Source: an uncultured Chloroflexia bacterium (GTDB lineage: Bacteria > Chloroflexota > Limnocylindria > Limnocylindrales > CSP1-4). Taken from it: a stretch of DNA of 64,000 nucleotides. The notes under the pieces are model-generated. The model saw nothing but the letters and a program-made list of their open reading frames with translations, was not told where the DNA came from and made no database searches. The position numbers and the translations under genes are program-made. The DNA is taken from the NCBI GenBank assembly GCA_963796715.1, contig CAWCMN010000005.1, positions 10,199 through 74,198 of the forward strand, given 5' to 3'. Positions 8,522 to 52,283 of this stretch are shown piece after piece; within the stretch, counting starts at the first letter, position 1; each line of letters begins with the position of its first letter.

Positions 8522-9173
8522 TCAGTCGAGCCGGCGGATGACCCCGATCAGCTTGCCCTGGATGCGCACGTCGTCGTAGATCATGGGCTCGTAGCGGCTG
8601 TTGGCGGGCTGCAGGCGGACGCGGCCGCCTTCCTTGAAGAAGCGCTTGAGGGTGACCGCGTTCTCCTCCACCTGGGCGACGACGATGTCGCCGTTGCGGG
8701 CGGTGTCCTGGGGCCGGATGACGACGTAGTCGCCGTCCTCGATGTGGGCGTCGATCATGGAGTCGCCGCGCACCTTGAGCAGGTAGGCGTCGCCGCTGGG
8801 GGCGAGGAACTCGGGCACGGCGAGGGTCTCGCTGGCGTCCTGGTACGCCTCGATGGGGCCGCCGGCGGCGATCTCGCCGAGCACCACCAGCAGGTGGCTG
8901 TCCATGGCCGCGACCTGCGGCAGGAGCTCGCTCGTCAGACCGGCATGCAGGGCGGCGGTGGGGGTGAGCCGCAGCGCGCGCGAGCGCGTCGCCCCGCGTT
9001 CGAGGTAGCCGTCCCGCTCCAGCGCCTCGAGGTGATGGTGGACCGCCGACGTGGAGGCCAGCCCGACCGCCTGGGCGATCTCGCGCACGGACGGGCGGAT
9101 AGCCGCGGGTGCGCAACGTGGCCGCGATGTATTCGATGATGCGTTGCTTGCGGGCGGCGTCGTGCTTGGTCAC
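8522..9173 (-). CDS. lexA: SOS repressor LexA, with apparent 1-nt frameshift near 9093-9095
   Basis: N-terminus MTKHDAARKQRIIEYI...RGYPP continues in another frame as VREIAQAVGLASTSAVHHHL. Ala-Gly cleavage site (GEIAAG), catalytic Ser (GDSM) and Lys (VTLKRF) intact. Confidence 0.93.
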
Positions 9174-9193: not shown

Positions 9194-9222
9194 ATGCTAC
9201 CGAACGTCTGTTCGATTGTCAA
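9194..9222 (-). promoter_or_regulatory. lexA promoter TTGACA-N17-TAGCAT with SOS box GAAC-GTCT-GTTC (9202-9213) in the spacer
   Basis: -35 at 9217-9222 and -10 at 9194-9199 on the minus strand; GAAC-N4-GTTC is the Gram-positive/Chloroflexi-type LexA box. Confidence 0.88.
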
Positions 9223-9269
9223 GCCGACCGCGAAGCCCCGCGGCGCACGAGGGCAGGCCGTGAGAGTCT

Positions 9270-9442
9270 CGGACGCACACCGGTGGGACGTTGACGCGCC
9301 AGAGGCTGGGCGAGGCCGGGACGGGGCGCTCGTGAAGCGCGACAGTCGTACTCACGGCACGACGGGGGTCAGCGGCTTCGGGGCCTTGTGACCCGCCGCA
9401 CCGTAGCGAAACCCGCGCGAACGTCCCCCGGGCGTGCATCTG
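9270..9442. repeat. REP/MITE-like element A (173 bp) with 23-bp imperfect inverted termini
   Basis: Left CGGACGCACACCGGTGGGACGTT (9270-9292), right AACGTCCCCCGGGCGTGCATCTG (9420-9442); the right end overlaps the 3' end of the HTH-nuclease gene. Confidence 0.65.
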
Positions 9443-10097
9443 CGACGAAGCTCAAGGCTCTGATCACGCCGGTCGGATCCGCTAACCACGCCCGCAGTCG
9501 CGGAGCTCGGTCCGAGAGGGCTGCGCTGAAGACAGCCAGGTGCGCGCTCACCCGGCGTCGGTTCGTCGCGCCGTGGCCGATCGCCAGCCAGCACGACACG
9601 CTGAGCGGCGCCCAGCCAACGTCCCGCGCGATCACCCGGGCGAGGCGGACCTTGCGGTCAAGGGTCGCGAGGATCTCGCCGACGTCGACGATCTCCGTCT
9701 TGAGTTCGACGAGCAGCAGGGACCGGGACCCTTCGTGCCAGGCGAGCAGGTCCACCACCCCGCGCTCGCCGTAGATGGCGAATGACACCTCCGGCCGCAC
9801 GACCCAGCCGCGCAGCGATCCGAAGTCGCGCGCGACCTGCTCGGCCAGGGCGGCGTGGCGGCCGTTGGCAAGGCGATCGAGGTCCGCGCCACGCGACCGA
9901 CCGACCAGATCCATGCGCACATCCAGGGCGCGGCCGACCGACCGGATGGTCGACAGCGCCAGATGGTCCAGGTGCCCCCGTTCGACCCTTGAGATGGTCG
10001 CGCGCGAGACGCCGGCCGCCCGTGCGACGTCCACTTGTCGCATCCGACGGTGCACGCGCGACGCGCGCAGGGCGGCCCCGAGCCGCTGGTCATCCAT
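9369..10097 (-). CDS. XRE-family HTH protein fused to a PD-(D/E)xK (DUF559/Vsr-like) nuclease domain
   Basis: N-terminal HTH RRMRQVDVARAAGVSRATISRVERG; C-terminal GERGVVDLLAWH...LLLVELKT; ATG at 10097. Confidence 0.78.
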   Translation of the reverse strand: MDDQRLGAALRASRVHRRMRQVDVARAAGVSRATISRVERGHLDHLALSTIRSVGRALDVRMDLVGRSRGADLDRLANGRHAALAEQVARDFGSLRGWVVRPEVSFAIYGERGVVDLLAWHEGSRSLLLVELKTEIVDVGEILATLDRKVRLARVIARDVGWAPLSVSCWLAIGHGATNRRRVSAHLAVFSAALSDRAPRLRAWLADPTGVIRALSFVADARPGDVRAGFATVRRVTRPRSR

Positions 10098-10202
10098 CTC
10101 CGGAGGATGCAGCCCGGCGCTCACCGGACGCTTTGCTCTCGCGCGGTGTGGACGCGGTCGCTGCGCGGTGGTGACCTCCCCAGGCCTCCCGTCGCCAGGG
10201 CA

Positions 10203-10362
10203 CAGACGCACGCCCTGGGAACGTTAGCGCCCCGGTGAGCGCCTTACGGACCCTCGTAGTCGCTTCGAGGATCGATCCGTGCGAGCGGCCTGGCTGCTTG
10301 ACGGCCGCCATCGCGGGCGGCGCAGGGCCGAGGCGTTCCAACGTTCCACCGGCGCGCGTCTG
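10203..10362. repeat. REP/MITE-like element B (160 bp)
   Basis: Left CAGACGCACGCCCTGGGAACGTT (10203-10225), right AACGTTCCACCGGCGCGCGTCTG (10340-10362). Confidence 0.72.
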
Positions 10363-10451
10363 CGACAGTCGCCCGGGTCGGCCGCCGCCACGCTGACGCG
10401 ACGCCTGCTCGAGGTCGGCCGCCGAGCGCGGCCGCTATACTCCACCGTCCG

Positions 10452-14481: not shown

Positions 14482-16188
14482 CTAACCCGCCGGAGCCCCG
14501 CAGGCGCTGGCGGCCGCCCCTGACCGCTCGATCTTGAGCAACCAGTAGCCGGCGGCCGCGTCGGCGATCAGCGGTGTCAGCACGACGTCCCCGCCGACCG
14601 TCGTCGGCGCCGGGACCTCGAGGACCGCGTACCCATCGACGGGCGCGTCGCCGCTGCGCTCGTGCAGCACGAGGACGGCGCAACCCAGGAAGCCCGGGCC
14701 CGGCTTGACGGACGCCGGTGCGAGGCCCGCGATGGCGGACAGCGGGAGGTCCAGATCCACGGCCAGCCGCGGGCGGAGCAGGTCCGGTCCCAGCAGCACG
14801 GGCGGTCCGGCATCGCCGCCCCGCCAGTCGACGCCCTGCGGCGGAGCATCGCGGGCGTGCGGGATCTCGTCGAGGGCGGCGCGAATGGTCGGCACTGCGG
14901 CGTCGGCGTCCTGGGTGAGGGTCCGCTGCGTCTCGGCCGACGTCCTGAGGGCCGTGGAGAGCGGCGCCGGCACCGGCTGGGCCGCCAGCGCGGCCACGAC
15001 GGCCAACGCCACCGCGACCGTCGCGCGGCCGACCGGGCCGGCCCGCATGGCCGGCAGCCGCGCCACCAGCCAGGCGAGGGCCACCCCGACCCCGATCGCA
15101 GCGGCCGTCACGACCGCCACATCGACGGCCGCGAAGTAGCGGGTCGACACGTAGGTGTGGCGCGCGGCGAGCACCAGCAGGAGCGCGACGACGCCGCCCG
15201 CCAGGCCCAACAACCCGGCTCCCACGGCCGCGTAGCCCGACCGATGCACGGCGCCCCGCACCAGCACCAGGCCGCCAAGGACCGCCAGCGCGGTGAGCAC
15301 GGGCTGATGCAGGTAGCGGCTGTCCAGGACGTGACGCAGCTGGCCGGGAGTGTCCACCGATCCGGGTGCCGCGGCCGAGAAGACCTGCGAGACGTAGGTC
15401 CAGTAGAAGGCGTCGCCGGTCAGCAGCCAGTCGTGGACCAGCATCACCGGGAGGGCCAGCAGGCCCAGGCCGATGAGCCAGGCACGCCGTGGTGGGGCCG
15501 GCAGGCGGAGCCACCGCCGAGCCACGGCGCTGCCCGTGCCGTTGCGCCTGGCCACCCAGCCGGCGCTCCACCGGACGACCGCCGCCACGACGAGCATCGC
15601 AAGCAGTGCCGCCACGACGGCGAGCGTCTCCAATCGCGCGAGCGTCGCGAGCAGCAGGGCGATACCGGCCCAGCCGAACCTGGGTCGCTCGCCGGTGACG
15701 AGCAGGCCAGCGCCGAACCAGCCGAGCATCGCCCACGGCGTGGCATAGGACACGAGGAGATCCGACTGCAGGAGGGGCAGCGAGACCAGGCCGACGACCG
15801 CGAATACGGCGGCCGCGGGACCCGCCAGCCGCCCGACGAGGCGGGCCGCCAGCAGGACGCTCACCGCGAACGCGCCGATCGTCGCCCACGAGATGGCGCG
15901 CCAGTCCCCGGACACGCCGTGCAGCACGCCGTAGATCAGCGTGAGGAGCGGCTTGGGCGTGGCGCCAAGGAAGGCCTCGAGCCGCTGGCCTGAGACGATC
16001 CTCTCGAAGAACGCGACCGACGCCGCGCTGTCGAACCCGACCGGCCCGGTCGAGAACGGCTGCACGACCGCGAGGCCCACGCCGCCGACCGCCACCACGA
16101 CCGCCCCGCCGGCCAGCCACACGAGCCAGGCGGGCCACTCGCGCGCCGGGGTCCGCGCGGTCACGGGCCGCTCACCGCGTAGATCCAC
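14482..16188 (-). CDS. Polytopic membrane protein, possible GT-C-fold glycosyltransferase (paralog 1)
   Basis: Many TM helices; N-terminal loop VQPF...FDSAASV...TPKPLLT..YG; LARLET motif. Confidence 0.7.
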   Translation of the reverse strand: MDLRGERPVTARTPAREWPAWLVWLAGGAVVVAVGGVGLAVVQPFSTGPVGFDSAASVAFFERIVSGQRLEAFLGATPKPLLTLIYGVLHGVSGDWRAISWATIGAFAVSVLLAARLVGRLAGPAAAVFAVVGLVSLPLLQSDLLVSYATPWAMLGWFGAGLLVTGERPRFGWAGIALLLATLARLETLAVVAALLAMLVVAAVVRWSAGWVARRNGTGSAVARRWLRLPAPPRRAWLIGLGLLALPVMLVHDWLLTGDAFYWTYVSQVFSAAAPGSVDTPGQLRHVLDSRYLHQPVLTALAVLGGLVLVRGAVHRSGYAAVGAGLLGLAGGVVALLLVLAARHTYVSTRYFAAVDVAVVTAAAIGVGVALAWLVARLPAMRAGPVGRATVAVALAVVAALAAQPVPAPLSTALRTSAETQRTLTQDADAAVPTIRAALDEIPHARDAPPQGVDWRGGDAGPPVLLGPDLLRPRLAVDLDLPLSAIAGLAPASVKPGPGFLGCAVLVLHERSGDAPVDGYAVLEVPAPTTVGGDVVLTPLIADAAAGYWLLKIERSGAAASACGAPAG

Positions 16189-17729
16189 AGGCCGGTCTGG
16201 GGCTGGACGAGTAAGGGCGTCAGCGTCTGGCCGCCGTACGTCGTCACGGTACCGACTTCGAGGTGCTGGTAGATCGGGTCGGCCGGGTCCGCCGCTCGAT
16301 CGTGGACGACGAGAGCGGCCCGCCCAAGGACCGTGCCGGTCGGCCCCAGGCCGGCCACGGTGACGCTGCCGAGCCGCGTGAGGGGGACGCTCAGGTCGAC
16401 CGCCAGCAGTGTCCGCATGGGCACCGGCACCACCACCGTGATGGGCCGCTGCCCCGGACCGACCAACTGGTCGCGGGCGCCGGGTATACCCGCGAGCGCG
16501 ACCTCCAGGACGGTCACCGCGGTCCGCTCGTTCTGCGCCAGTCGCTGGGCGGCAGCCGCCAGCGTCTGGGTCCCCGGCGCGATCAGCGCGGGCGGCCAGC
16601 CGACGAGGACGGCCGCCATGGCGCCCGCCAGCAGGGCGCCGCCGGTGGTCAGGTCACGCCCGCCGCCGAGGCGTGTCAGGCGGGCCCACGGCGGCTGCGC
16701 TCCGCGAGCCTGCGCCCATCGGATGATCGCCTCGGCCACGCCGGCCGCGCCGATGCCCGCGGTGAACAGCACCGCCACGTCGATGGGCACGGCATACCGC
16801 GAGGCGATGAAGGTGCCCCGCACGGCCAGGAAGAACAGCAGCGCGACCACGCCCGGGCCAAGGGCGGCCAGCCCGGCCGCGATCGCCCAGTGCCGTCGTC
16901 GGAGCAGCCACACCCCGCCGCACAGCGCCAGCACGCTGAACGGGGCCATGCTGATGTAGCGGTGGGCCAGGAAGTGCGTCAGGGCGAACGGATCCAGGAG
17001 GGACGCCGCACCCGCGCCCTCCGAGTATCGCGTCGACACCGTCACCCAGAAGAAGGGGTCACCGGTCAGCAACCAGTCGTGCAGCAGCATCACCGGGAGG
17101 GCCAGGAAGCCGAGCAGGATCCACCAGGCGCCCCGTGGCACGAGCGCGGCACCGGTCCGGCGTCCGGCCACCCAGAGGCCGACGAGCAGGACCAGCGCGG
17201 CGCCGACCAGCACGAGCGTCTCGAGGCGGGCCAGCGTGGCTAGGAGCAGGGCGATCCCGGCCAGGGCATATCGCGGCCGGGGGGCGGTCACCGCCAGACC
17301 GGCCGCCGCCCATCCGACCATCGCCCAGGGCACGGCCGACGCGATGAGCAGCTCACCCGCGAGCGACGGGGAGGCGATGAGGGCGACCGCCGCGAAGGCA
17401 GCCGCGAGCGGCCCCGCGACGCGGCCGGCCAGCCAGGTGGCCAGGACGACGGCCACCGCGAACGCCCCGATCGTGGCGAACGAGATGGCTCGCCAGTCGC
17501 CGGTCAGCGCATAGAGCCCGCCGTACACGCCGGTCAGCAACGGCTTGGGCGTCGTGCTGATGAACGACTCCAGGCGCTGCCCATGGATCAGTCGCAGGAA
17601 GTGGATGACCGAGCTGCCCACGTCATAGCTCGCCGGCCCTACCGCGAAGGGCTGGACGACGGCGAGCGTGAGGGCGGCGGCGAGGAGCCCCACCACGACG
17701 AGCGACAGCGCAGCCAGGCGAGGCGACAC
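16161..17729 (-). CDS. Polytopic membrane protein, possible GT-C-fold glycosyltransferase (paralog 2)
   Basis: Collinear similarity to paralog 1 (VQPF, GQRLE, TPKPLLT, GDWRAIS, LARLET, LPVMLLHDWLLTGD); GTG start inferred at 17729. Confidence 0.7.
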   Translation of the reverse strand: MSPRLAALSLVVVGLLAAALTLAVVQPFAVGPASYDVGSSVIHFLRLIHGQRLESFISTTPKPLLTGVYGGLYALTGDWRAISFATIGAFAVAVVLATWLAGRVAGPLAAAFAAVALIASPSLAGELLIASAVPWAMVGWAAAGLAVTAPRPRYALAGIALLLATLARLETLVLVGAALVLLVGLWVAGRRTGAALVPRGAWWILLGFLALPVMLLHDWLLTGDPFFWVTVSTRYSEGAGAASLLDPFALTHFLAHRYISMAPFSVLALCGGVWLLRRRHWAIAAGLAALGPGVVALLFFLAVRGTFIASRYAVPIDVAVLFTAGIGAAGVAEAIIRWAQARGAQPPWARLTRLGGGRDLTTGGALLAGAMAAVLVGWPPALIAPGTQTLAAAAQRLAQNERTAVTVLEVALAGIPGARDQLVGPGQRPITVVVPVPMRTLLAVDLSVPLTRLGSVTVAGLGPTGTVLGRAALVVHDRAADPADPIYQHLEVGTVTTYGGQTLTPLLVQPQTGLWIYAVSGP

Positions 17730-17757
17730 GCCGGGCAACCCCCCGCCGGCGATCCCG

Positions 17758-18363
17758 TCAGCCGTCGGCGAACCGCTCCTCTCGCCAGGGGTCGGCGTCG
17801 TTGTGGTAGCCGTACCGCTCCCAGAAGCCGAGTTGATCGTGATCCAGGAACTCGAGGCCGCGGATCCACTTGGCGCTCTTCCAGAAGTACCGCTTGGGCA
17901 CGAAGAGGCGCAACGGCCCGCCATGTTCCGGCTCGAGCGGCTTGCCCCCGAAGGCGTCGGCCAGCAGCACGTCGTCGTCGTCAAGCACGGAGAGCGGCAG
18001 GTTCGCGGTGTAGCCCTGTTCGCAGTGCGCCACCACGAACCGCGCCGTGGGGCGCAGCTGGGCGAGCCCCAGGATGTGCTGGATGGCGACGCCCTCGAAG
18101 TCCGTGTCGAGCTTGGTCCAGCGCGTCACGCAGTGGATGTCGGTGTGCACGGTCTTGCGGGGGAAGCGCTGGTACTCCGCCCAGGTGAAGGTGAACGGGT
18201 TGTCGACCTCGCCATAGACCCGCAGGTCCCAGCGGGCCAGGTCGATCCGCGGCACCGAGCCGTAGTGCAGGACGGGGAACTTCTCGGTCACGTACTGGCC
18301 GGGAGGCACGCGTTTCTTCTGCTCGTCGGTGAGCGGCGCGCGTCCGATCAGTCGTCCCAGCAT
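17758..18363 (-). CDS. Sulfite oxidase-like molybdopterin oxidoreductase (YuiH-like)
   Basis: RVPPGQY.TEKFPVLH, DIHCVTRW, EHGGPLRL.VPKRYFWKSAKW, GFWERYGYH. Confidence 0.92.
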   Translation of the reverse strand: MLGRLIGRAPLTDEQKKRVPPGQYVTEKFPVLHYGSVPRIDLARWDLRVYGEVDNPFTFTWAEYQRFPRKTVHTDIHCVTRWTKLDTDFEGVAIQHILGLAQLRPTARFVVAHCEQGYTANLPLSVLDDDDVLLADAFGGKPLEPEHGGPLRLFVPKRYFWKSAKWIRGLEFLDHDQLGFWERYGYHNDADPWREERFADG

Positions 18364-18668: not shown

Positions 18669-19316
18669 TCAGCTCGCGCTGGAGACCGTCGCCAGGTCTT
18701 CTGGCCGGTCGGCGGCGCCCGCGGAGCCGGCGGTCGCCGCCGCTAGGCGCCCGGGTTCCCACTCGGTGGACAGGATGCCCATCTGGACCTCGTCGACGTA
18801 GTGGCCGTCGCGCCAGATCGCCTCGCGCAGGCGACCCTCGACGCGGAAACCGGCCTTCTGGTACGCCCGGATGGCCCGCTCGTTGAACGCGAACACACTC
18901 AGGCCGACGCGATGGAGGCCCAGGCGCCGGAAGGCGTGGTCCAGCATCAGCTCGGTCGCCTCGGTGCCCATGCCGCGGCCCCACGCGTCGCGTTCCCCGA
19001 TCGTGATGTGGAACAGGGCCGACCCGTTGTCCGGGTCGAGTGCGCTGAAGGTGGTCAGGCCGATCAGGCGATCCCCCAGCCGCTCATGGATGGCGTAGGC
19101 CATGGCCTCGGGGGCGATGAGCCGGGAGCGGAAGAACTGGGCCACCTCGTCGGTGCTCATGGGTCGCGTCTGGTAGCGGGTCAGGCGGGCCAGCTCGGGG
19201 TCGTGGTACCACCGCACCACGGCCGGCAGGTTCTCCTGGCGATGCCGCCGCAGGGTGACCGACCGGCCCTGGATGGCCGCGGGATGCCACTGGTCGCGAT
19301 CGAACTCGGCCGACAT
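18669..19316 (-). CDS. GNAT N-acetyltransferase (RimJ/RimL family)
   Basis: WGRGMGTEA, LHRVGLSVFAFNERAIRAYQKAGFRVEGRLRE. Confidence 0.92.
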   Translation of the reverse strand: MSAEFDRDQWHPAAIQGRSVTLRRHRQENLPAVVRWYHDPELARLTRYQTRPMSTDEVAQFFRSRLIAPEAMAYAIHERLGDRLIGLTTFSALDPDNGSALFHITIGERDAWGRGMGTEATELMLDHAFRRLGLHRVGLSVFAFNERAIRAYQKAGFRVEGRLREAIWRDGHYVDEVQMGILSTEWEPGRLAAATAGSAGAADRPEDLATVSSAS

Positions 19317-19344
19317 GGGAGGGCGATGCTATACCATCGCTCGG

Positions 19345-21030
19345 ATGCGCCGTTGGAGCGAGACGGCCGAGCGCGTGGCGGCCACGAGCCGCACCTCGGA
19401 GAAGGTCCGCATCCTGGCCGAGTACCTCCGCACCCTCACTCCCGCGGAGCTGCCGACCGCCGTCACGTTCTTCACTGGTCGGCCCTTCCCCGAGCGCGAT
19501 CCGCGCGTCCTGGGCCTGGGCTGGGCGGCCATCGGTGAAGCCGTGCAGGCCGAGGCGGACGCCGAACCGGGTGCGCTCGGCCGGGCCTACGACCGCTCAT
19601 CCGACCTTGGCCAGGCGGTGTTCGACCTGTTCAGCGAGTCCAGGCGGCGCCCCTCGGGTGAGCTCCCGACCGTCACCGATGTGCGCGACGCGTTCGCCTC
19701 CATCGCCACCGCCAGCGGCCCCGCCGCCAAGTCCGTGCCGCTGCGGACGCTCCTCTGGCGCAGCGACCCGCTGGTCGCCAAGTACCTCGTCAAGGTCATG
19801 AGCGGCGACATGCGGATCGGCCTCCGTGAGGGCAACCTCGAGGCCGCCGTCGCCGCCGCGTTCGACCGGCCCCTGCCGGCCGTGCAGTGGGCGGGCATGC
19901 TGACCGGCGACCTCGGCCACACGGCCGAATTGGCGCGCGACGACCGCCTGGACGAGGCCGAGCTGACCCTCTTCCGCCCGCTCAAGTCGATGCTCGCGTC
20001 GCCGGCCGCGGACGTGGCCGAGGTGACCGCACGGCTTGGCACGCCCGTCTGGGTCGAGGACAAGTACGACGGCATCCGCGCCCAGCTGCACCGGCTGGCC
20101 GGCGAGACGCGCCTGTACAGCCGCGACCTGCACGACGTCTCGGGGCAGTTCCCGGAGGTCATCGCCGCGGCGGGTGACCTGGCCTGGTCGGGCATCCTCG
20201 ACGGCGAGCTGCTGGGCTGGCGCGACGGCACGGCCCTGCCCTTCCAGCAGCTGCAGGGGCGGCTCGGCCGCAAGGGCCCGAGCGCGGCGGTGCTGGCCGC
20301 GACGCCGGTGATCTTCGTGGCCTTCGACCTGCTGGCCAGCGGCGCAGGCGCCGCGACCCCCGAGCCGCTGCTGCGCGCGCCGCTGCGGGAGCGCCGCAAG
20401 CGGCTGGAGGGGCTCGGGCTCGGCGAGCGGCCCGGCTTCGGCCTGTCGCACCTGGAGACGGCCGCCTCGGAGGCCGAGCTCGACGAGCGCTTCACGGCGG
20501 CCCGTGCACGGGGCAACGAGGGGCTCATGGTCAAGGATCCCGCCAGCGGCTACTCGCCGGGCCGCCGCGGCTTCGGGTGGCTCAAGCTCAAGCGGCCGCT
20601 GGCGACGCTGGACTGCGTCGTGGTGGGCGTGGAGGTCGGCCACGGGAAGCGCCACGGCGTCCTCTCCGATTACACCTTCGCCGTGCGCGACGACCGGCCG
20701 GACGCGCCGCATCCCCTGGCCACGATCGGCAAGGCCTACAGCGGCCTGACGGACGCCGAGCTGGCGGACATGACGCGCTGGTTCAGCGACCACACCATCT
20801 CGATCCACGGCCGCTACCGCGTGGTGGAGCCCACCGTCGTGGTGGAGGTAGCTTTTGACGTGGTCCAGCGCTCGCGCCGCCACGCCTCCGGCTATGCGCT
20901 GCGGTTCCCCCGCATCGCCCGCCTGCGCGACGACAAGGGCCCCGACGAGATCGACCGGCTGTCCACCGTGGCGGCGCTCGAGGCCCGCCTCGCCGCCGGC
21001 GCCCACGTGGTGGTCGAGACGACCGCCTGA
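19345..21030 (+). CDS. ATP-dependent DNA ligase (DBD + adenylation + OB domains)
   Basis: Motif I VEDKYDGIR, ILDGE, FVAFDLL, EGLMVK, WLKLK, LRFPRI; start placed 7 nt after TACCAT. Confidence 0.95.
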   Translation: MRRWSETAERVAATSRTSEKVRILAEYLRTLTPAELPTAVTFFTGRPFPERDPRVLGLGWAAIGEAVQAEADAEPGALGRAYDRSSDLGQAVFDLFSESRRRPSGELPTVTDVRDAFASIATASGPAAKSVPLRTLLWRSDPLVAKYLVKVMSGDMRIGLREGNLEAAVAAAFDRPLPAVQWAGMLTGDLGHTAELARDDRLDEAELTLFRPLKSMLASPAADVAEVTARLGTPVWVEDKYDGIRAQLHRLAGETRLYSRDLHDVSGQFPEVIAAAGDLAWSGILDGELLGWRDGTALPFQQLQGRLGRKGPSAAVLAATPVIFVAFDLLASGAGAATPEPLLRAPLRERRKRLEGLGLGERPGFGLSHLETAASEAELDERFTAARARGNEGLMVKDPASGYSPGRRGFGWLKLKRPLATLDCVVVGVEVGHGKRHGVLSDYTFAVRDDRPDAPHPLATIGKAYSGLTDAELADMTRWFSDHTISIHGRYRVVEPTVVVEVAFDVVQRSRRHASGYALRFPRIARLRDDKGPDEIDRLSTVAALEARLAAGAHVVVETTA

Positions 21031-32810: not shown

Positions 32811-34037
32811 ATGGGAGCCGATAGCACCAGCCCCCGTCACGCCCCCGCCCGCCGCGTCTCCTGCTGCTGGTCTTCGCCGCCAGCCTGGCCCTGATCGGCG
32901 CGACCGCAGTGGCGGTGGCCGGCATGCTCTATCTCATCTTCCGTGCCGCCGCGCGGCGGCCGGACCGCCAGACGGACCTGCTCATGCAGGCCTCGCAACA
33001 GGACGCCCTGACCGGCCTGCTCGACCACGGCGCGGTCGTCGAGGTGCTCGGCACGCAGATCGACCGCGCCAGGCACGCGGGCACCGGGCGGGTCGGCCTG
33101 GCCCTGGTCGACGTGGACAACTTCCGGCTGCTCAACGACACGCACGGCCACGCGGCCGGCGACACGGTCCTGCTCGAGGTCGGTCGGCTGTTGCGCGGCC
33201 AGCTGTCCCAGGCGTCGGTCATCGGCCGCTTCGGGCCGGACGAGTTCCTGGTCGTGGCTCCGCCGGAGTGCGCCCATGACCTGGAGCCGGCCCTTGGCCG
33301 GATGCGTGAGGAGTTCGAGGAAGTGGCCGTGCAGTTCGGCGGCACCGAGCGCCTGCCGATCTCGGTCAGCGCCGGCGTGGCCTACTACCCGGAGCACGGC
33401 GACGCCATCACCGAGCTGCTCTCCGAGGCGACGGTCGCCCTTCGTGGCGGCCAAGGCGTCGGGCGGCAACGCCCTGCGCCTGGCGGAGCGGACCGCCGAC
33501 GACCGCCTGGGTCTGGACCCCGACCTGCGCCGGACCCTGGAGGTGGCCGGCCTGCTCCACGACATCGGCAAGATCGGCATCTCCGACACGATCCTGCGCA
33601 AGCCCAGGCCGCTCACGGCAGAGGAGTACGACATCGTCAAGCAGCACGTCGCGCTCGGCGACATGATCGTGCGCGACCTGCCCAACCTGGACCTGGTGCG
33701 GGGCGGTGTGCGCCACCACCATGAGCGCTGGGACGGCCACGGCTACCTCGACCGCCTGATCGGGGAGGAGATCCCCCTCATCGCTCGCATCCTGGCGGTC
33801 GGCGACGCCTTCAGTGCCATGACCACCACACGCCCGTACCGCAAGGCCCTGTCCGTGGAGGAGGCGCTGCGCCGCCTGGGCGACGCCGCGGGCAGCCAGC
33901 TCGACCCGCGACTCGTGACGGCGTTCGTACAGGGCATGGAGCACGCGGCCGATCCGCCGCTGCCGGGCCAGGTCACGACCGGCGTGTCCGGCCTGGCGCT
34001 GCCGCCGATCCTGCGCCCCTCGCGCCGGGTGGCCTGA
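32811..34037 (+). pseudogene. Decayed GGDEF + HD-GYP signalling protein
   Basis: GGDEF domain with RFGPDEF; frameshifts near 32830 and ~33440. The HD-GYP part lacks its first helices (no KDxYT...HS); the two TM helices have no sensor domain between them. Confidence 0.8.
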
Positions 34038-43135: not shown

Positions 43136-44098
43136 ATGGCTCGCTCGATGTGGCGCGGCGCGGTCCAGTTCGGGCTCGTGACCATCCCCGTCAAGCTCTA
43201 CCTGGCCACGGAGTCGAACGCCGGGCTGAGCTTCAACCTGCTCCACAAGACGTGCCTGACGCGCGTCCAGATGCGGACCTGGTGCCCGTTCCACGAGGAG
43301 TACATCAGCCGCGCCGACACCGTTCGCGGCTTCGAGTACGCCAAGGGCCAGTACGTCGTGATCGACGATGCCGACCTGGAGAACGTGCCCCTCAAGACCG
43401 TCCGCTCCATCGAGATCGAGACGTTCGTGCCGGCCCGCCGCGACGGCGAGACGGCCAAGTTCGTGAAGTCGGCCTACTACCTGGAGCCCGAGGCGGTCGG
43501 GCGCAAGGCCTTCTACCTGCTCCAGGACGTGCTCCGCGAGGATGGCCTGAGCGCCATCTGCAAGATCGTCATCAAGGATCGCGAAGCGCTGGCGGCGATC
43601 GACCCGTACCAGCGGACGATGCTGCTCTCGACGCTCTACTGGCCCGACGAGGTCCGCTCCGTGGAGGAGCTGGACCTGCCCGACGAGCAGCAGACGTTCA
43701 AGCCGGCCGAGGTCGCGATGGCCCGCAACCTCGTGGCCGCCATGACCACCGAGTTCGATCCCGCGCAGTACCACGACGAGTACCGCGCCGCGCTCCAGAA
43801 GGTGATCGAGGCCAAGGTCGCGGGCGAAGAGGTCGAGCGACCGGCCGAAGCGCCAAAGGCGGCCGGCAAGCTCGTCGACCTGATGAGCGTCCTGGAGGCC
43901 AGCGTCGCGGCGGCCCGCGCGACGCGCACCGAGGCGAAGCCCGAGCCCGAGTCGCGCGCCAGGGCGTCGGCGAAGGCCGCGGCGCCCGCCAAGGCCTCGT
44001 CCGCTAAGACGGCTGCCGCGCGGCGCAAGGCTCAGGCGGCGGCCGCGGAGGCGGAAGAGGAAGCAGCGGCTCCGGTGCGGCGGCGCAAGTCCGCCTGA
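43136..44098 (+). CDS. ku: NHEJ DNA end-binding protein Ku
   Basis: RSMWRGAVQFGLVTIPVKLY, RGFEYAKGQYV, SAYYLEP, TLYWPDEVR, DEYRAAL; basic C-terminal tail. Confidence 0.96.
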   Translation: MARSMWRGAVQFGLVTIPVKLYLATESNAGLSFNLLHKTCLTRVQMRTWCPFHEEYISRADTVRGFEYAKGQYVVIDDADLENVPLKTVRSIEIETFVPARRDGETAKFVKSAYYLEPEAVGRKAFYLLQDVLREDGLSAICKIVIKDREALAAIDPYQRTMLLSTLYWPDEVRSVEELDLPDEQQTFKPAEVAMARNLVAAMTTEFDPAQYHDEYRAALQKVIEAKVAGEEVERPAEAPKAAGKLVDLMSVLEASVAAARATRTEAKPEPESRARASAKAAAPAKASSAKTAAARRKAQAAAAEAEEEAAAPVRRRKSA

Positions 44099-44114: not shown

Positions 44115-44873
44115 GTGGCCGAGCTGGACCAGCCGCCTCGGCCGTTGGCCGAAACGGATCAGCTGACCCTCAGCCTGGGGGACGGCGAGCCCGTCGTCCC
44201 GGCCGATGCCGCGGCGCAACGACCCCGCTCGACGGGCAAGCCGCGCCGGTTCCGCCCGATGGAACCGCTGATCGGCGACGGCCCCTTCGACGACCCGGCC
44301 TACAGGTTCGAGCCGTGGTGGCCGGGCACCCGCATCCTCGTCGGGGTGGCCGACGGGGTGGTGCGCCTCGACGCTCGCCACCTGGCGGATCCGCTGACCG
44401 CGTTCCCCGAGCTGCGGGACATCGCGGGGCTGCTGCCGTCGCCCGGACCGCACGTGCTGGATGGGGCGCTGCTCGTGCTCGACGGCGACGGCCGGCCCGA
44501 CAGCGATCTGCTCCGGGAGCGGCTCTCGTGGCCCGAGGTGCGGGACGGGACGCCGGCCTTCGTCGCCAGCGACCTGCTGGTGGCAGGAGGCGTGGACGTG
44601 ACCGGCCTCCCGTTCCGGGCGCGGCTGGAGCGGCTCACCGGGCTGCTGAGCGAGGCCGACTGGTGCATGGTCGCGCGCGGCTACGAGGGCGACGGGATGG
44701 CAGTCGCGGCCGCGCTCGAGTCGATGGGCCTGACGGCGATGTCGGCCAGGCACCTCGAGTCGCGCTACCACCCCGGGCCGTCGCGCGGCGCGTGGCTGCG
44801 GCTGCCGCTGCGGCCGGCTGCCCCGCCGACGCGGCCGCCGTCACTGGCGCTCATCCAGCGGCTGGGCCTGTGA
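44115..44873 (+). CDS. ATP-dependent ligase-like adenylation domain, catalytically degenerate
   Basis: RPMEP, FEPWWPG in place of ExKxDG, VLDGAL, FVASDLL, Y.PG.SR.AWLR; no OB domain. Confidence 0.7.
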   Translation: MAELDQPPRPLAETDQLTLSLGDGEPVVPADAAAQRPRSTGKPRRFRPMEPLIGDGPFDDPAYRFEPWWPGTRILVGVADGVVRLDARHLADPLTAFPELRDIAGLLPSPGPHVLDGALLVLDGDGRPDSDLLRERLSWPEVRDGTPAFVASDLLVAGGVDVTGLPFRARLERLTGLLSEADWCMVARGYEGDGMAVAAALESMGLTAMSARHLESRYHPGPSRGAWLRLPLRPAAPPTRPPSLALIQRLGL

Positions 44874-50907: not shown

Positions 50908-51581
50908 TCCAGGTCGCCCCCTCGATCCTGGCGGCCGACCAGGGCCATCTGGCCGACCAGGTGGAGGCCACCTTCAAGGCCGGCGTGCGCCGCCTCCACG
51001 TCGACGTCATGGACGGCCGGTTCGTGCCCAACATCACGATCGGGCCGACGGTCGTGGCTGCCCTGCGGCCGATCGCGGACCGCTACGGCGCCGTCATCGA
51101 GACGCACCTCATGATCGTGGAGCCGGACCTGTGGCTGGAGCCGTTCCGCGAGGCCGGAGCCGATGTCCTCACGATCCACGTGGAGGCCGCGTCGCACCTG
51201 CACCGCTCCCTGCGCCGCATCCGCGAGCTTGGCGGCGGCCCCGGCGCGGCGATCAACCCGGCGACGCCGCTGACGGCTCTCGATGAGGTCCTTGACGAAC
51301 TCGACCTAGCGCTCGTCATGACGGTGGAACCCGGGTTCGGTGGCCAGGACCTGATCCCCCACACGCTCGACAAGGTGCGGCGGCTGCACGTGCTGCTGGA
51401 GGCGCGGGGCCTGGCCGAACGGGTCGCCCTGGAAGTGGACGGCGGCATCCACGCGGGCACGATCGCGCAGGCTCAGGAGGCCGGCGCCACGCTGGCCGTC
51501 GCCGGCACGGCCGTCTACAACACCGAGGGCTCGATCGAGGCCAACCTGCGGCTCCTGCACGCCGCCTGCGGCGCGCCATAG
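50904..51581 (+). CDS. rpe: Ribulose-phosphate 3-epimerase
   Basis: [36 protein letters not shown]. Confidence 0.96.
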
Positions 51582-51598
51582 GCGCGGGTTGGCCGGGA

Positions 51599-51985
51599 GT
51601 GCCGAGCCTGCTGCTGCTCCTGCCGGTCCTGGGAGCAGAGCTCCTTGGTCTGACACTGGCCTATGTCTGGCGGGTCGGCGGGATCGTTCTTGTGCGGGCG
51701 CGGGCTGGCTACATCCTGCAGCTGGCGGGGGTCGTGGCTATCGGTGGCATCATCGCGATGGCCATAGGCCAGGCGTTGGATCCGGAGGTCGCAGCGATCA
51801 GCGGAGCCATCGTCGCGGCTGTCGATCTGCCCCTCGGCCTCTGGATGCGACGTCGACGCATCGCACACGAGGCCGCGATGCCTCCGATGGACCGGCGACT
51901 CGCGGCGCGATTCCGGATGCTCGTGTTCACCACGCTATTCGGCACGACGCTGCTGTTCACGTTCCTTCCCTTTGTGCTGCGCTGA
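51599..51985 (+). CDS. Hypothetical membrane protein
   Basis: Four hydrophobic segments; codon usage somewhat less GC-biased than neighbours. Confidence 0.6.
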   Translation: MPSLLLLLPVLGAELLGLTLAYVWRVGGIVLVRARAGYILQLAGVVAIGGIIAMAIGQALDPEVAAISGAIVAAVDLPLGLWMRRRRIAHEAAMPPMDRRLAARFRMLVFTTLFGTTLLFTFLPFVLR

Positions 51986-52082
51986 GGCTCAGCCGGAGCC
52001 ACGACGGCACGCGCACGATGCCAACGTCGTCACGTCGGGGCCGGGCTGGCCGGCGCGCAAGGCCGGCCGACGGAGCCGCTTG

Positions 52083-52242
52083 CAGATGTGCATCCGGGGA
52101 ACGTACGCGCGAGGGAGAGGCTCGGGCTCGGCCAGCCTGGCCTCGCGCTCCGGGTCGCTGAGCGTGAGCGGGCGTCGTCAACCCGAGTTGCCGGCGCGAT
52201 CGCGGGACCGGCGCGAGCTAACGTTCCACGGGCGTGCGTCTG
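52083..52242. repeat. REP/MITE-like element C (160 bp)
   Basis: Left CAGATGTGCATCCGGGGAACGTA (52083-52105), right AACGTTCCACGGGCGTGCGTCTG (52220-52242); lies between convergent genes. Confidence 0.68.
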
Positions 52243-52283
52243 AGGCGGTGGTCACCGACCGGCGCCCCTTGCGGGCGGTACCG

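Follow-up and report, generated by a model that had tools for sequence, protein, structure and literature searches.

A predicted PD-(D/E)xK nuclease gene of Limnocylindria and the inverted-repeat elements that accompany its family

The REPIN–RAYT system couples doublets of repetitive extragenic palindromic (REP) sequences, which form hairpins, to a single-copy REP-associated tyrosine transposase (RAYT) (PMC3116915). Here we describe a locus from an uncultured member of the Chloroflexota (contig CAWCMN010000005.1) at which doublets of another kind flank a gene for a helix-turn-helix (HTH) protein with a predicted PD-(D/E)xK nuclease domain. The analysis covered the 64 kb of DNA that surround this locus (hereafter, the window) and the relatives of the gene in other genomes. 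An earlier reading of the window (the original prediction) had proposed that the gene and its flanking repeats might be a REPIN-like selfish system that uses an HTH-PD-(D/E)xK protein rather than a HUH transposase. We give even chances to the interpretation that the unit is a selfish cassette, now mostly vertically inherited, whose nuclease recognizes the arms of its own repeats. It would be a partnership of the REPIN–RAYT type, or of the type formed by insertion sequences (IS) and miniature inverted-repeat transposable elements (MITE), and a member of neither.

A 23-nt motif occurs six times in the window, arranged as three inverted, outward-facing pairs that define elements A, B, and C. Scanning with a degenerate 23-mer at up to three mismatches returned five of the copies, at 9270–9292 (minus strand), 9420–9442 (plus), 10203–10225 (minus), 10340–10362 (plus), and 52220–52242 (plus); shuffled windows gave a mean of 0.02 matches, and 0 of 100 shuffles gave five. 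The sixth copy (52083–52105) has changed at 6 of the 20 specified positions, mostly by transitions, and pairs with 52220–52242 in the predicted fold. The original prediction of six outward-facing copies and of elements of 173, 160, and 160 bp is thereby borne out, with one copy recognizable as a diverged member. Element A (9270–9442, minus strand, 173 bp; arms 9420–9442 and 9270–9292, the former in the coding sequence) is the doublet downstream of the gene, and element B (10203–10362, minus strand, 160 bp; arms 10340–10362 and 10203–10225) is the one upstream; we refer to doublets in these two positions as D and U, respectively. Element C (52083–52242, 160 bp) is a solo doublet between the convergent genes rpe and gnd. 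The outer ends of the arms read CAGAYGC...GCRTCTG in the window and differ in other lineages. As had been noted from the letters, the interiors of A, B, and C do not align: no significant similarity was obtained in either orientation (z < 2).

Elements A and B bracket the open reading frame (ORF) 9369–10097 on the minus strand, which is the one copy of the nuclease gene in the window. The right arm of A does lie in the last codons of this gene, as originally proposed: arm 9420–9442 codes for residues 219–226 (ADARPGDV), and the element encloses the last 24 codons together with the stop codon. The partner arm (9270–9292) lies 77 nt beyond the stop codon and 47 nt short of the lexA −35 box, while on the other side 105 bp separate the end of B from the ATG at 10097. 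The whole cassette of U, gene, and D (9230–10432, approximately 1.2 kb) separates the promoter region of DUF1232 from the −35 box of lexA. In five strains the sequence through A and B is collinear, with one orientation throughout. The LexA box of the lexA promoter (GAACAGACGTTC, 9200–9213) includes CAGACG and ACGTTC, the outer and inner words of the arm motif CAGACGCACGCC-N3-GGAACGTT; this overlap is probably a coincidence, though the cassette sits 47 bp from the lexA promoter.

The gene encodes 242 amino acids, comprising an XRE-type HTH (residues 1–60), a linker, a PD-(D/E)xK-fold domain (73–218), and a disordered tail (221–242). The Pfam families HTH_3 and HTH_31 matched the N terminus above their cut-offs, and the nearest solved HTH structures are the restriction–modification (R–M) controllers C.BclI and C.AhdI and repressors of the HipB, SinR, and ClgR type. 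No Pfam, NCBIfam, or PADLOC model matched the C-terminal domain; all matches were to HTH families, the PADLOC defence models likewise matching at the HTH alone, and there was a weak match to the YhcG PDDEXK family (E 0.3). An AlphaFold2 model built with 76 homologues reached a mean predicted confidence (pLDDT) of 88.7, with low values of approximately 55 in the tail, and residues 98–174 form an alpha/beta core of three strands, a helix, and one more strand. A Foldseek search with the C-terminal domain placed it nearest to the restriction-like endonuclease (RLE) domains of R2 retrotransposon proteins and archaeal PD-(D/E)xK proteins such as AF1548 (E 3e-4 to 3e-3), with TM-scores that are low (0.27–0.36 over the whole query), and also matched Can2. 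Residues D116, E131, and K133 are invariant across the 76 sequences, indicating that the PD-(D/E)xK active site is retained. We conclude that the C-terminal domain is, as modelled, a PD-(D/E)xK fold with a D...ExK motif and the protein a predicted nuclease; the identity assigned in the original prediction holds for both the HTH and the nuclease domain.

We found approximately 900 full-length homologues, and the C-terminal domain family comprises approximately 1,450 clusters at 50% identity. Among the members listed for this domain, nearly all are proteins of approximately 170–350 amino acids, and in most the domain starts near residue 70. The homologues are named as Candidatus Limnocylindrales or Chloroflexota, and near-identical contigs of the window come from soil assemblies in ENA; the related sequences are all metagenomic, and their taxonomy beyond these source names is uncertain. 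Viral contigs, plasmids, and phages yielded no relatives of the nuclease. Database annotation describes the family merely as 'helix-turn-helix transcriptional regulator', and a full-text search of the literature returned no account of an HTH + PD-(D/E)xK gene with such repeats.

To determine how widely the repeats accompany the gene, we fetched 80 metagenome loci of homologues and scanned them for 22-nt inverted arms with at least 18 matches at spans of 120–200 bp. Because arms were detected under stringent criteria and without gaps, the frequencies given for the family are lower bounds. The scan returned 18 pairs in 13.5 kb around stop codons and 12 in 25.7 kb upstream of the gene, against 1 in 50 kb of gene body and approximately 10 in 198 kb elsewhere; on inspection, the pairs in this last group look like noise from GC-rich sequence. 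Relative to elsewhere in the loci, pairs are 24-fold denser at the 3′ end of the gene and 8-fold denser upstream. When the scan was restricted by position and relaxed to at least 17 of 22 matches, a D pair was present in 29 of 80 loci and a U pair in 19 of 62, compared with 0 of 210 and 3 of 40 in the controls; the positional windows of this test were picked after the first scan, and its controls were taken in windows of equal size. A further test used an anchor at codons 214–233, fixed beforehand from the coordinate in the 64-kb window. This segment has a reverse-complement partner 30–300 nt downstream in 38 of 73 loci (z ≥ 3), and a mid-gene control segment in 1 of 73. Together, the downstream doublet is present in 36–52% of loci or more and the upstream doublet in approximately 30%, which makes the downstream element the more general feature; some lineages, such as that of protein P0023 (no upstream pair at ≥16/22), have D alone.

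The position of the downstream element is fixed relative to the protein. In 27 of the 29 loci scoring at least 17/22, the left arm of D begins 652–676 nt after the start codon, and this start (approximately codons 219–222) is the end of the confident fold in the AlphaFold2 model. The element thus starts where the folded protein ends, and the disordered tail is encoded by the element. U pairs begin at −213 to −269 and end 40–155 bp (median approximately 78) before the start codon. The fixed length that the original prediction attributed to the elements holds within this genome and not across the family, where spans vary between 125 and 192 bp and show no phasing. Homologues with unrelated genomic neighbourhoods share the layout. 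In the Chloroflexia metagenome-assembled genome (MAG) L006 from GTDB, a homologue that is 51% identical lies beside an S8 peptidase gene and is bracketed by two elements (151 and 160 bp) of the same motif type; at L024, a homologue that is 56% identical lies in yet another context with the same layout and a very different motif (gCCATnCAGTCGCCGGGTGACT), one arm again falling in the last codons. Thus, the repeats are a property of the nuclease family and not of this locus alone. The link between repeat and gene that had been predicted is confirmed by these densities and by a motif that changes with the protein lineage.

Repeats of other kinds also occur near homologues. At the homologue P0064 (L022, 6834–7188), tandem repeats of 34/86 nt occupy the expected position of the downstream element, and at L024 (5724–5850), GC-rich tandem repeats of 17–30 nt separate the gene from its upstream element. 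That contig ends cluster close to elements was weighed as a possible sign of repeats and dropped, because P0023 has no upstream pair at ≥16/22 and the contig ends could not be placed at an element.

Alignments of the arms of approximately 45 elements show a constant design, in which a block of approximately 12 nt is followed by a non-complementary spacer of 3–4 nt and a second block of approximately 8 nt. These bipartite arms are found in most lineages inspected, the second block is often trailed by ACGTTAG or ACGTAAG, and none of the arms resembles the short palindromes of REP type (by eye). The sequences of the blocks vary widely between lineages, with the two arms of an element co-varying. 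Where U and D are both recognizable at a locus, they share the arm motif in direct orientation, and at L035 and L074 they are direct repeats over the full length of the element. The two variable residues (32 and 33) that open the recognition helix of the HTH track the motif, R-x occurring with GGAACGTT and Q-x with GGGACTnnTAGGCC.

A related species (L023; LexA 99.5% and DnaB 97% identical in protein sequence) carries the cassette at the equivalent place. The flanks of the window align with those of L023 at 84–86% nucleotide identity up to 9229 and again from 10433, and the flanking genes are 95–99.5% identical in protein sequence (DUF1232, 88%). In contrast, the cassette gene (6001–6750 in L023) is approximately 72% identical in both protein and DNA (72.7% in the nucleotide alignment), from which the nuclease gene appears to be under far weaker constraint than the flanking genes, or under diversifying selection. 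The elements of L023 are 140 and 139 bp long, compared with 160 and 173 bp in the window; the element regions gave no blastn alignment, and their interiors could not be aligned in either orientation, with no sign of inversion. Nevertheless, all arms in the window and in L023 keep the motif CAGAYGCRCGCC-N3-GGRAYGTT with 0–3 mismatches to the consensus. Because neutral sequence is scrambled at this distance, the arms must be under purifying selection or constantly homogenized. In L023 the coding copy of the arm lacks 6 nt and a complete element follows the stop codon, so that an element can evidently be freed from the ORF and still be kept whole. We also considered replacement of the cassette in L023 and dropped it: the right flanks share the words 'ACTCTC' and 'ACGGCC' (by eye), and an identity of 72% is what relaxed constraint would give at the neutral divergence seen in the flanks.

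The original prediction had suggested that relatives be compared for an empty site in the lexA interval, and such a site was found. Six loci (L109–L114) keep the L9-DUF1232/lexA-dnaB order without the cassette, with a gap of 114–136 bp between DUF1232 and lexA that holds neither the gene nor the elements. By LexA identity these loci are 91% (L109 and L110), 87% (L111–L113), and 82% (L114, a contig of 2.95 Mb) identical to the window. Since syntenic relatives lack the whole cassette and not just its repeats, gene and repeats arrived, or are lost, together. The empty site has no pre-existing element, whereas the cassette at this position has both copies. No transposase, integrase, invertase, or reverse transcriptase was found among the approximately 45 annotated genes of the window region; 11 scanned ORFs match no Pfam family. 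No methyltransferase, toxin, or other partner gene was found to accompany the cassette. The neighbouring lexA gene (minus strand) has a 1-nt insertion at 9085–9100 (TATCCGCCCG, compared with TATCC-CCCG in L003 and L023) that shifts the frame after approximately codon 27 and leaves two ORFs in place of one, where the relatives have an intact LexA of 216 amino acids; the cause could be misassembly, or lexA could be a pseudogene here.

Doublets also occur away from the gene. Element C lies in a strain-variable insert of 707 bp (51576–52282, between rpe and gnd) that is present in a contig of the same species (L105) and absent from L106, whose flanks are 91–92% identical in nucleotide sequence, and from L107. 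In L106 and L107 the stop codons of rpe and gnd are approximately 8 bp apart, and L108 has a DUF1810 gene instead of the insert. A search with the family profile found no gene remnant within 450 bp of element C, and within the window neither C nor U shares flank homology with the 3′ end of the gene. The insert also contains a doubtful ORF of 128 codons (51599–51985), a predicted membrane protein that has no Pfam family, fails the filter on GC content at third codon positions, and differs from L105 by indels; it is probably not a gene.

In other genomes, solo doublets were found at L019 and L020 (GTDB Chloroflexi genomes), with no nuclease homologue in the 8 kb covered at each locus. Inspection of 97 kb of flanking sequence from other lineages yielded one solo doublet (L074, 281–446), which carries the lineage's own motif, and at L097 one extra arm match near the contig end (approximately 4011) whose partner is unconfirmed. 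The three copies in L074 (solo, U, and D) share their arms and much of their interior, with 80% mean column identity when flanks are included. The L074 solo retains approximately 65 nt of the 3′ coding sequence of the gene upstream of its arm; thus, at least some solos originated at the 3′ terminus of a copy of the gene. A reading of these copies as products of a diversity-generating retroelement was dropped, since no reverse transcriptase is present and the differences among them are not adenine-specific (by eye). Scanning 185,579 species genomes for the exact motif gave 17 hits, of which 3 have an inverted partner, all in Chloroflexi and at one hit per genome. The other 14, including L005 in Chloroflexi, have no inverted partner and are consistent with chance. 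The original prediction had likened the ends of the motif to palindromic repeats near DUF559-type genes in mycobacteria. This link found no support, as the protein has no DUF559 match in Pfam and no mycobacterial genome is among the motif hits.

How might these features work together? In the interpretation that we favour, gene and repeats form one unit of approximately 1.2 kb that was inserted between the DUF1232 and lexA promoters. The core of the unit is the nuclease gene with its 3′-terminal element of 125–190 bp, with a second, direct copy upstream in this lineage and in roughly a third of the family. This architecture, its conservation across the family, the selection on the arms, and the insertion polymorphism are observed, whereas binding, cutting, and mobilization are inferred. 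In the proposed mechanism, the protein would recognize its own arms, the HTH contacting one block while the other is contacted by the nuclease domain or by a second subunit; it would then join the two arms of an element in a complex and cleave in or close to them, and host repair would copy or move the element or the cassette. Binding of the protein at the flanks of its own gene would also limit expression of the nuclease. Ku and an adjoining ligase-like ORF (43136–44098 and 44115–44873) and a full ATP-dependent DNA ligase (19255–21030) are encoded in the window, so breaks made by the nuclease could be repaired by end joining. A broader claim is that the cassette represents a long-lived and so far unrecognized class of selfish DNA in the Chloroflexota, in which a nuclease uses ORF-embedded arms to copy or move a foldback element of approximately 160 bp and occasionally the cassette. 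This is possible, although we consider it somewhat doubtful; if true, it would be a second, mechanistically independent partnership like REPIN–RAYT, with a restriction-like nuclease and host repair instead of a HUH transposase.

For the REPIN-like selfish system of the original prediction, the link to the gene and the solo doublets (C, L019, L020, and L074) stand. Arms that read as REP palindromes (by eye) and evidence of transposition were not found, and REPIN-like abundance goes beyond what the counts obtained show. Of the three observations that the original prediction had named as grounds for its rejection (single motifs at random spacing, no enrichment near the nuclease family, and a syntenic gene without the repeats), none was made. 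Several further observations weigh against a selfish cassette. The upstream copy is missing in most lineages (e.g., that of P0023), so that a two-ended transposon model fails for the family as a whole. We detected no target-site duplication, the longest word shared between flanks equalling the null for 19 U elements and for 8 whole cassettes, and no near-identical gene copies were found at two loci (the P0023 protein comes from nine contigs in nine samples, all of one locus). Element C is in variable DNA but is not a clean, element-sized insertion, and the L074 solo may be what is left of a second cassette and not a copy mobilized in trans. Copy number looks low, with one solo in 64 kb and one exact-pattern hit in each of the three GTDB Chloroflexi genomes that have a paired element. 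The conservation of arms at a single vertically inherited locus suggests a cis role, e.g., in regulation, at least as much as mobility. The match between HTH residues and motif is what co-evolution would predict, but shared ancestry may suffice to explain it. Finally, PD-(D/E)xK nucleases are not known to carry out strand transfer on their own.

An alternative is that the arms are purely regulatory and not mobile, serving as operators through which an XRE-type repressor, with a potentially toxic nuclease fused to it, would control its own gene; the protein could have a role in defence or the response to DNA damage. By occupying both flanks, perhaps with looping, it would hold expression low; the cassette would have spread by ordinary horizontal transfer and recombination, and the solos would be decayed relics of lost cassettes. 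The nearest HTH structures, being R–M controllers and repressors, are as expected for such a protein, as are a single-copy gene with arms conserved at one vertically inherited locus, the piece of 3′ coding sequence in the L074 solo, and the absence of target-site duplication. However, the promoter does not carry the best-conserved pair, which lies at the 3′ end of the gene, within the ORF, and the upstream pair, which is the one near the promoter, is absent in approximately 70% of lineages. The span between arms (125–192 bp) shows no phasing, no methyltransferase or partner gene accompanies the cassette, and the solos C, L019, and L020 have no gene remnant, C moreover lying between convergent 3′ ends and not at a promoter. 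We regard a purely regulatory role as rather unlikely.

Two other accounts take the structure of the elements as their starting point. Folded, attC-like sites could allow the gene and its 3′ site to circularize, or the segment between arms to invert, through the encoded protein or an unlinked recombinase. The two paired boxes with their unpaired 3–4 nt spacer and variable centre would suit such a site, as would the universal unit of gene plus 3′ site with an optional upstream copy, the U and D direct repeats (full length in L035 and L074), and the presence/absence polymorphism of the cassette. Yet the elements have no RYYYAAC/GTTRRRY outer box, the annotated genes of the window region include no integrase, invertase, or transposase, the cargo is always one gene family, five strains share one orientation, and the empty lexA site has no prior element although the cassette there has both copies; we judge recombination at folded sites very unlikely. 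The last account, in which the arms base-pair to form long hairpins, one in the 5′ leader of the mRNA and one at its 3′ end (affecting stability, processing, or termination), or belong to small RNA genes, is the least probable in our estimation. The ends of the element do pair with each other in all three predicted RNA folds, the arms co-vary across lineages, and the diverged arm of C still pairs through four G:U pairs on the plus strand. But only B folds better than shuffled sequences (z = −4.7, compared with −1.4 for A and −1.8 for C), and mismatches in the arms, read in gene orientation, show no bias toward the sense strand (37 G:T, or G:U in RNA, and 40 A:C). Rfam returned nothing at gathering thresholds over the whole window and nothing at E ≤ 1 over 9200–10450, there is no T-run terminator, and 3–4 nt in the middle of the arm are consistently unpaired. 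Local pairing alone also offers no apparent reason for U, D, and solo to share sequence. The missing strand bias, the folding of B alone, and the missing Rfam match point to arms that are sites for a protein on double-stranded DNA and not RNA helices.

Three other features of the window are recorded here for completeness. At positions 1–1107, ahead of an HD_5 gene (1108–2073), a unit of approximately 613 bp occurs in tandem at 99–100% identity (247-nt blocks at 1/615 and 248/861), which could be a true duplication or an assembly artefact at the edge of the window. Inverted copies at 1369–1676 and 33535–33842, with 73–78% similarity, probably stem from paralogous genes. The ORFs 14482–16188 and 16161–17984 are adjacent paralogues that have no Pfam family, with similar stretches at 15400–15990 and 17046–17582.

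If the nuclease acts on its own arms, partnerships between an enzyme and a repeat would no longer be confined to HUH and DDE transposases but would include restriction-like nucleases, and there would be a second, independent case from which to learn how a lineage maintains single-copy 'domesticated' enzymes alongside their repeats. A function would also be found for a domain family of approximately 1,450 clusters that has no Pfam model and that occurs in Limnocylindria, a lineage abundant in soil and represented here by MAGs alone. Arms at a fixed codon that co-vary with the protein lineage form a natural series of protein–site pairs, which might yield a recognition code and perhaps programmable DNA-binding nucleases. 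Even if the arms prove to be regulatory, an operator pair that spans the end of its own ORF would be unusual.

In comparison with known systems, the cassette shares some features with each of several and matches none. With IS and MITE it has in common small elements with terminal inverted repeats, ends shared with a protein-coding unit whose ORF enters the repeat, and presence/absence polymorphism at a conserved locus (the cassette being absent from L109–L114). Unlike them, it has no target-site duplication, no DDE, HUH, or serine/tyrosine transposase, and no multi-copy gene, and each end of the unit is itself a doublet. Elements of one genome have unrelated interiors and hence have not multiplied in a recent burst, again unlike IS and MITE. 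Integron attC sites resemble the cassette in that a gene is followed by an imperfect inverted-repeat site with two boxes that pair, a spacer between them that does not, and a variable centre, and in that structure outlasts sequence across the family; they differ in their RYYYAAC...GTTRRRY outer boxes, IntI, and arrays, none of which is found here, while the cargo of the cassette is constant and its site begins within the ORF. An inverton is a poor match, given the same orientation in five strains and no recombinase found.

At the level of the protein, the RLE domains of R2 and AF1548 are the best structural matches to the C-terminal domain, with the D...ExK motif in common. The TM-scores are low, however, and unlike R2 the cassette has no reverse transcriptase and a different domain partner (the XRE HTH). 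R–M C proteins and XRE autorepressors resemble the cassette in having the closest HTH domains (C.BclI, C.AhdI, HipB, and SinR) and inverted sites upstream of their own gene; here, in contrast, the arms are 100–150 bp apart instead of adjacent, the best-conserved pair is 3′, and there is no methyltransferase or toxin.

The fullest comparison is with REPIN–RAYT. Both systems have a single-copy, largely vertically inherited enzyme gene flanked by inverted doublets (here in the window, L023, L006, and L024), with arms that are well conserved around a poorly conserved spacer, a motif specific to the enzyme lineage, and doublets that also occur away from the gene. They differ in the enzyme, which here joins an XRE HTH to a PD-(D/E)xK domain and there is an IS200-like HUH/Y1 transposase; in the arms, which here are bipartite and 23–30 nt long and there are short REP palindromes with a GTAG or CGTC head; and in the spacer, which here is 90–140 nt and mostly non-palindromic. 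Also unlike REPIN–RAYT, the cassette has a downstream doublet that enters the ORF at a constant codon and, in many lineages, no upstream doublet, and abundance seems low. With high abundance unproven, arms that do not read as REP-type palindromes, and an enzyme of another class, the cassette falls outside the REPIN–RAYT family, and the comparison suggests that it may nevertheless function in the same manner.

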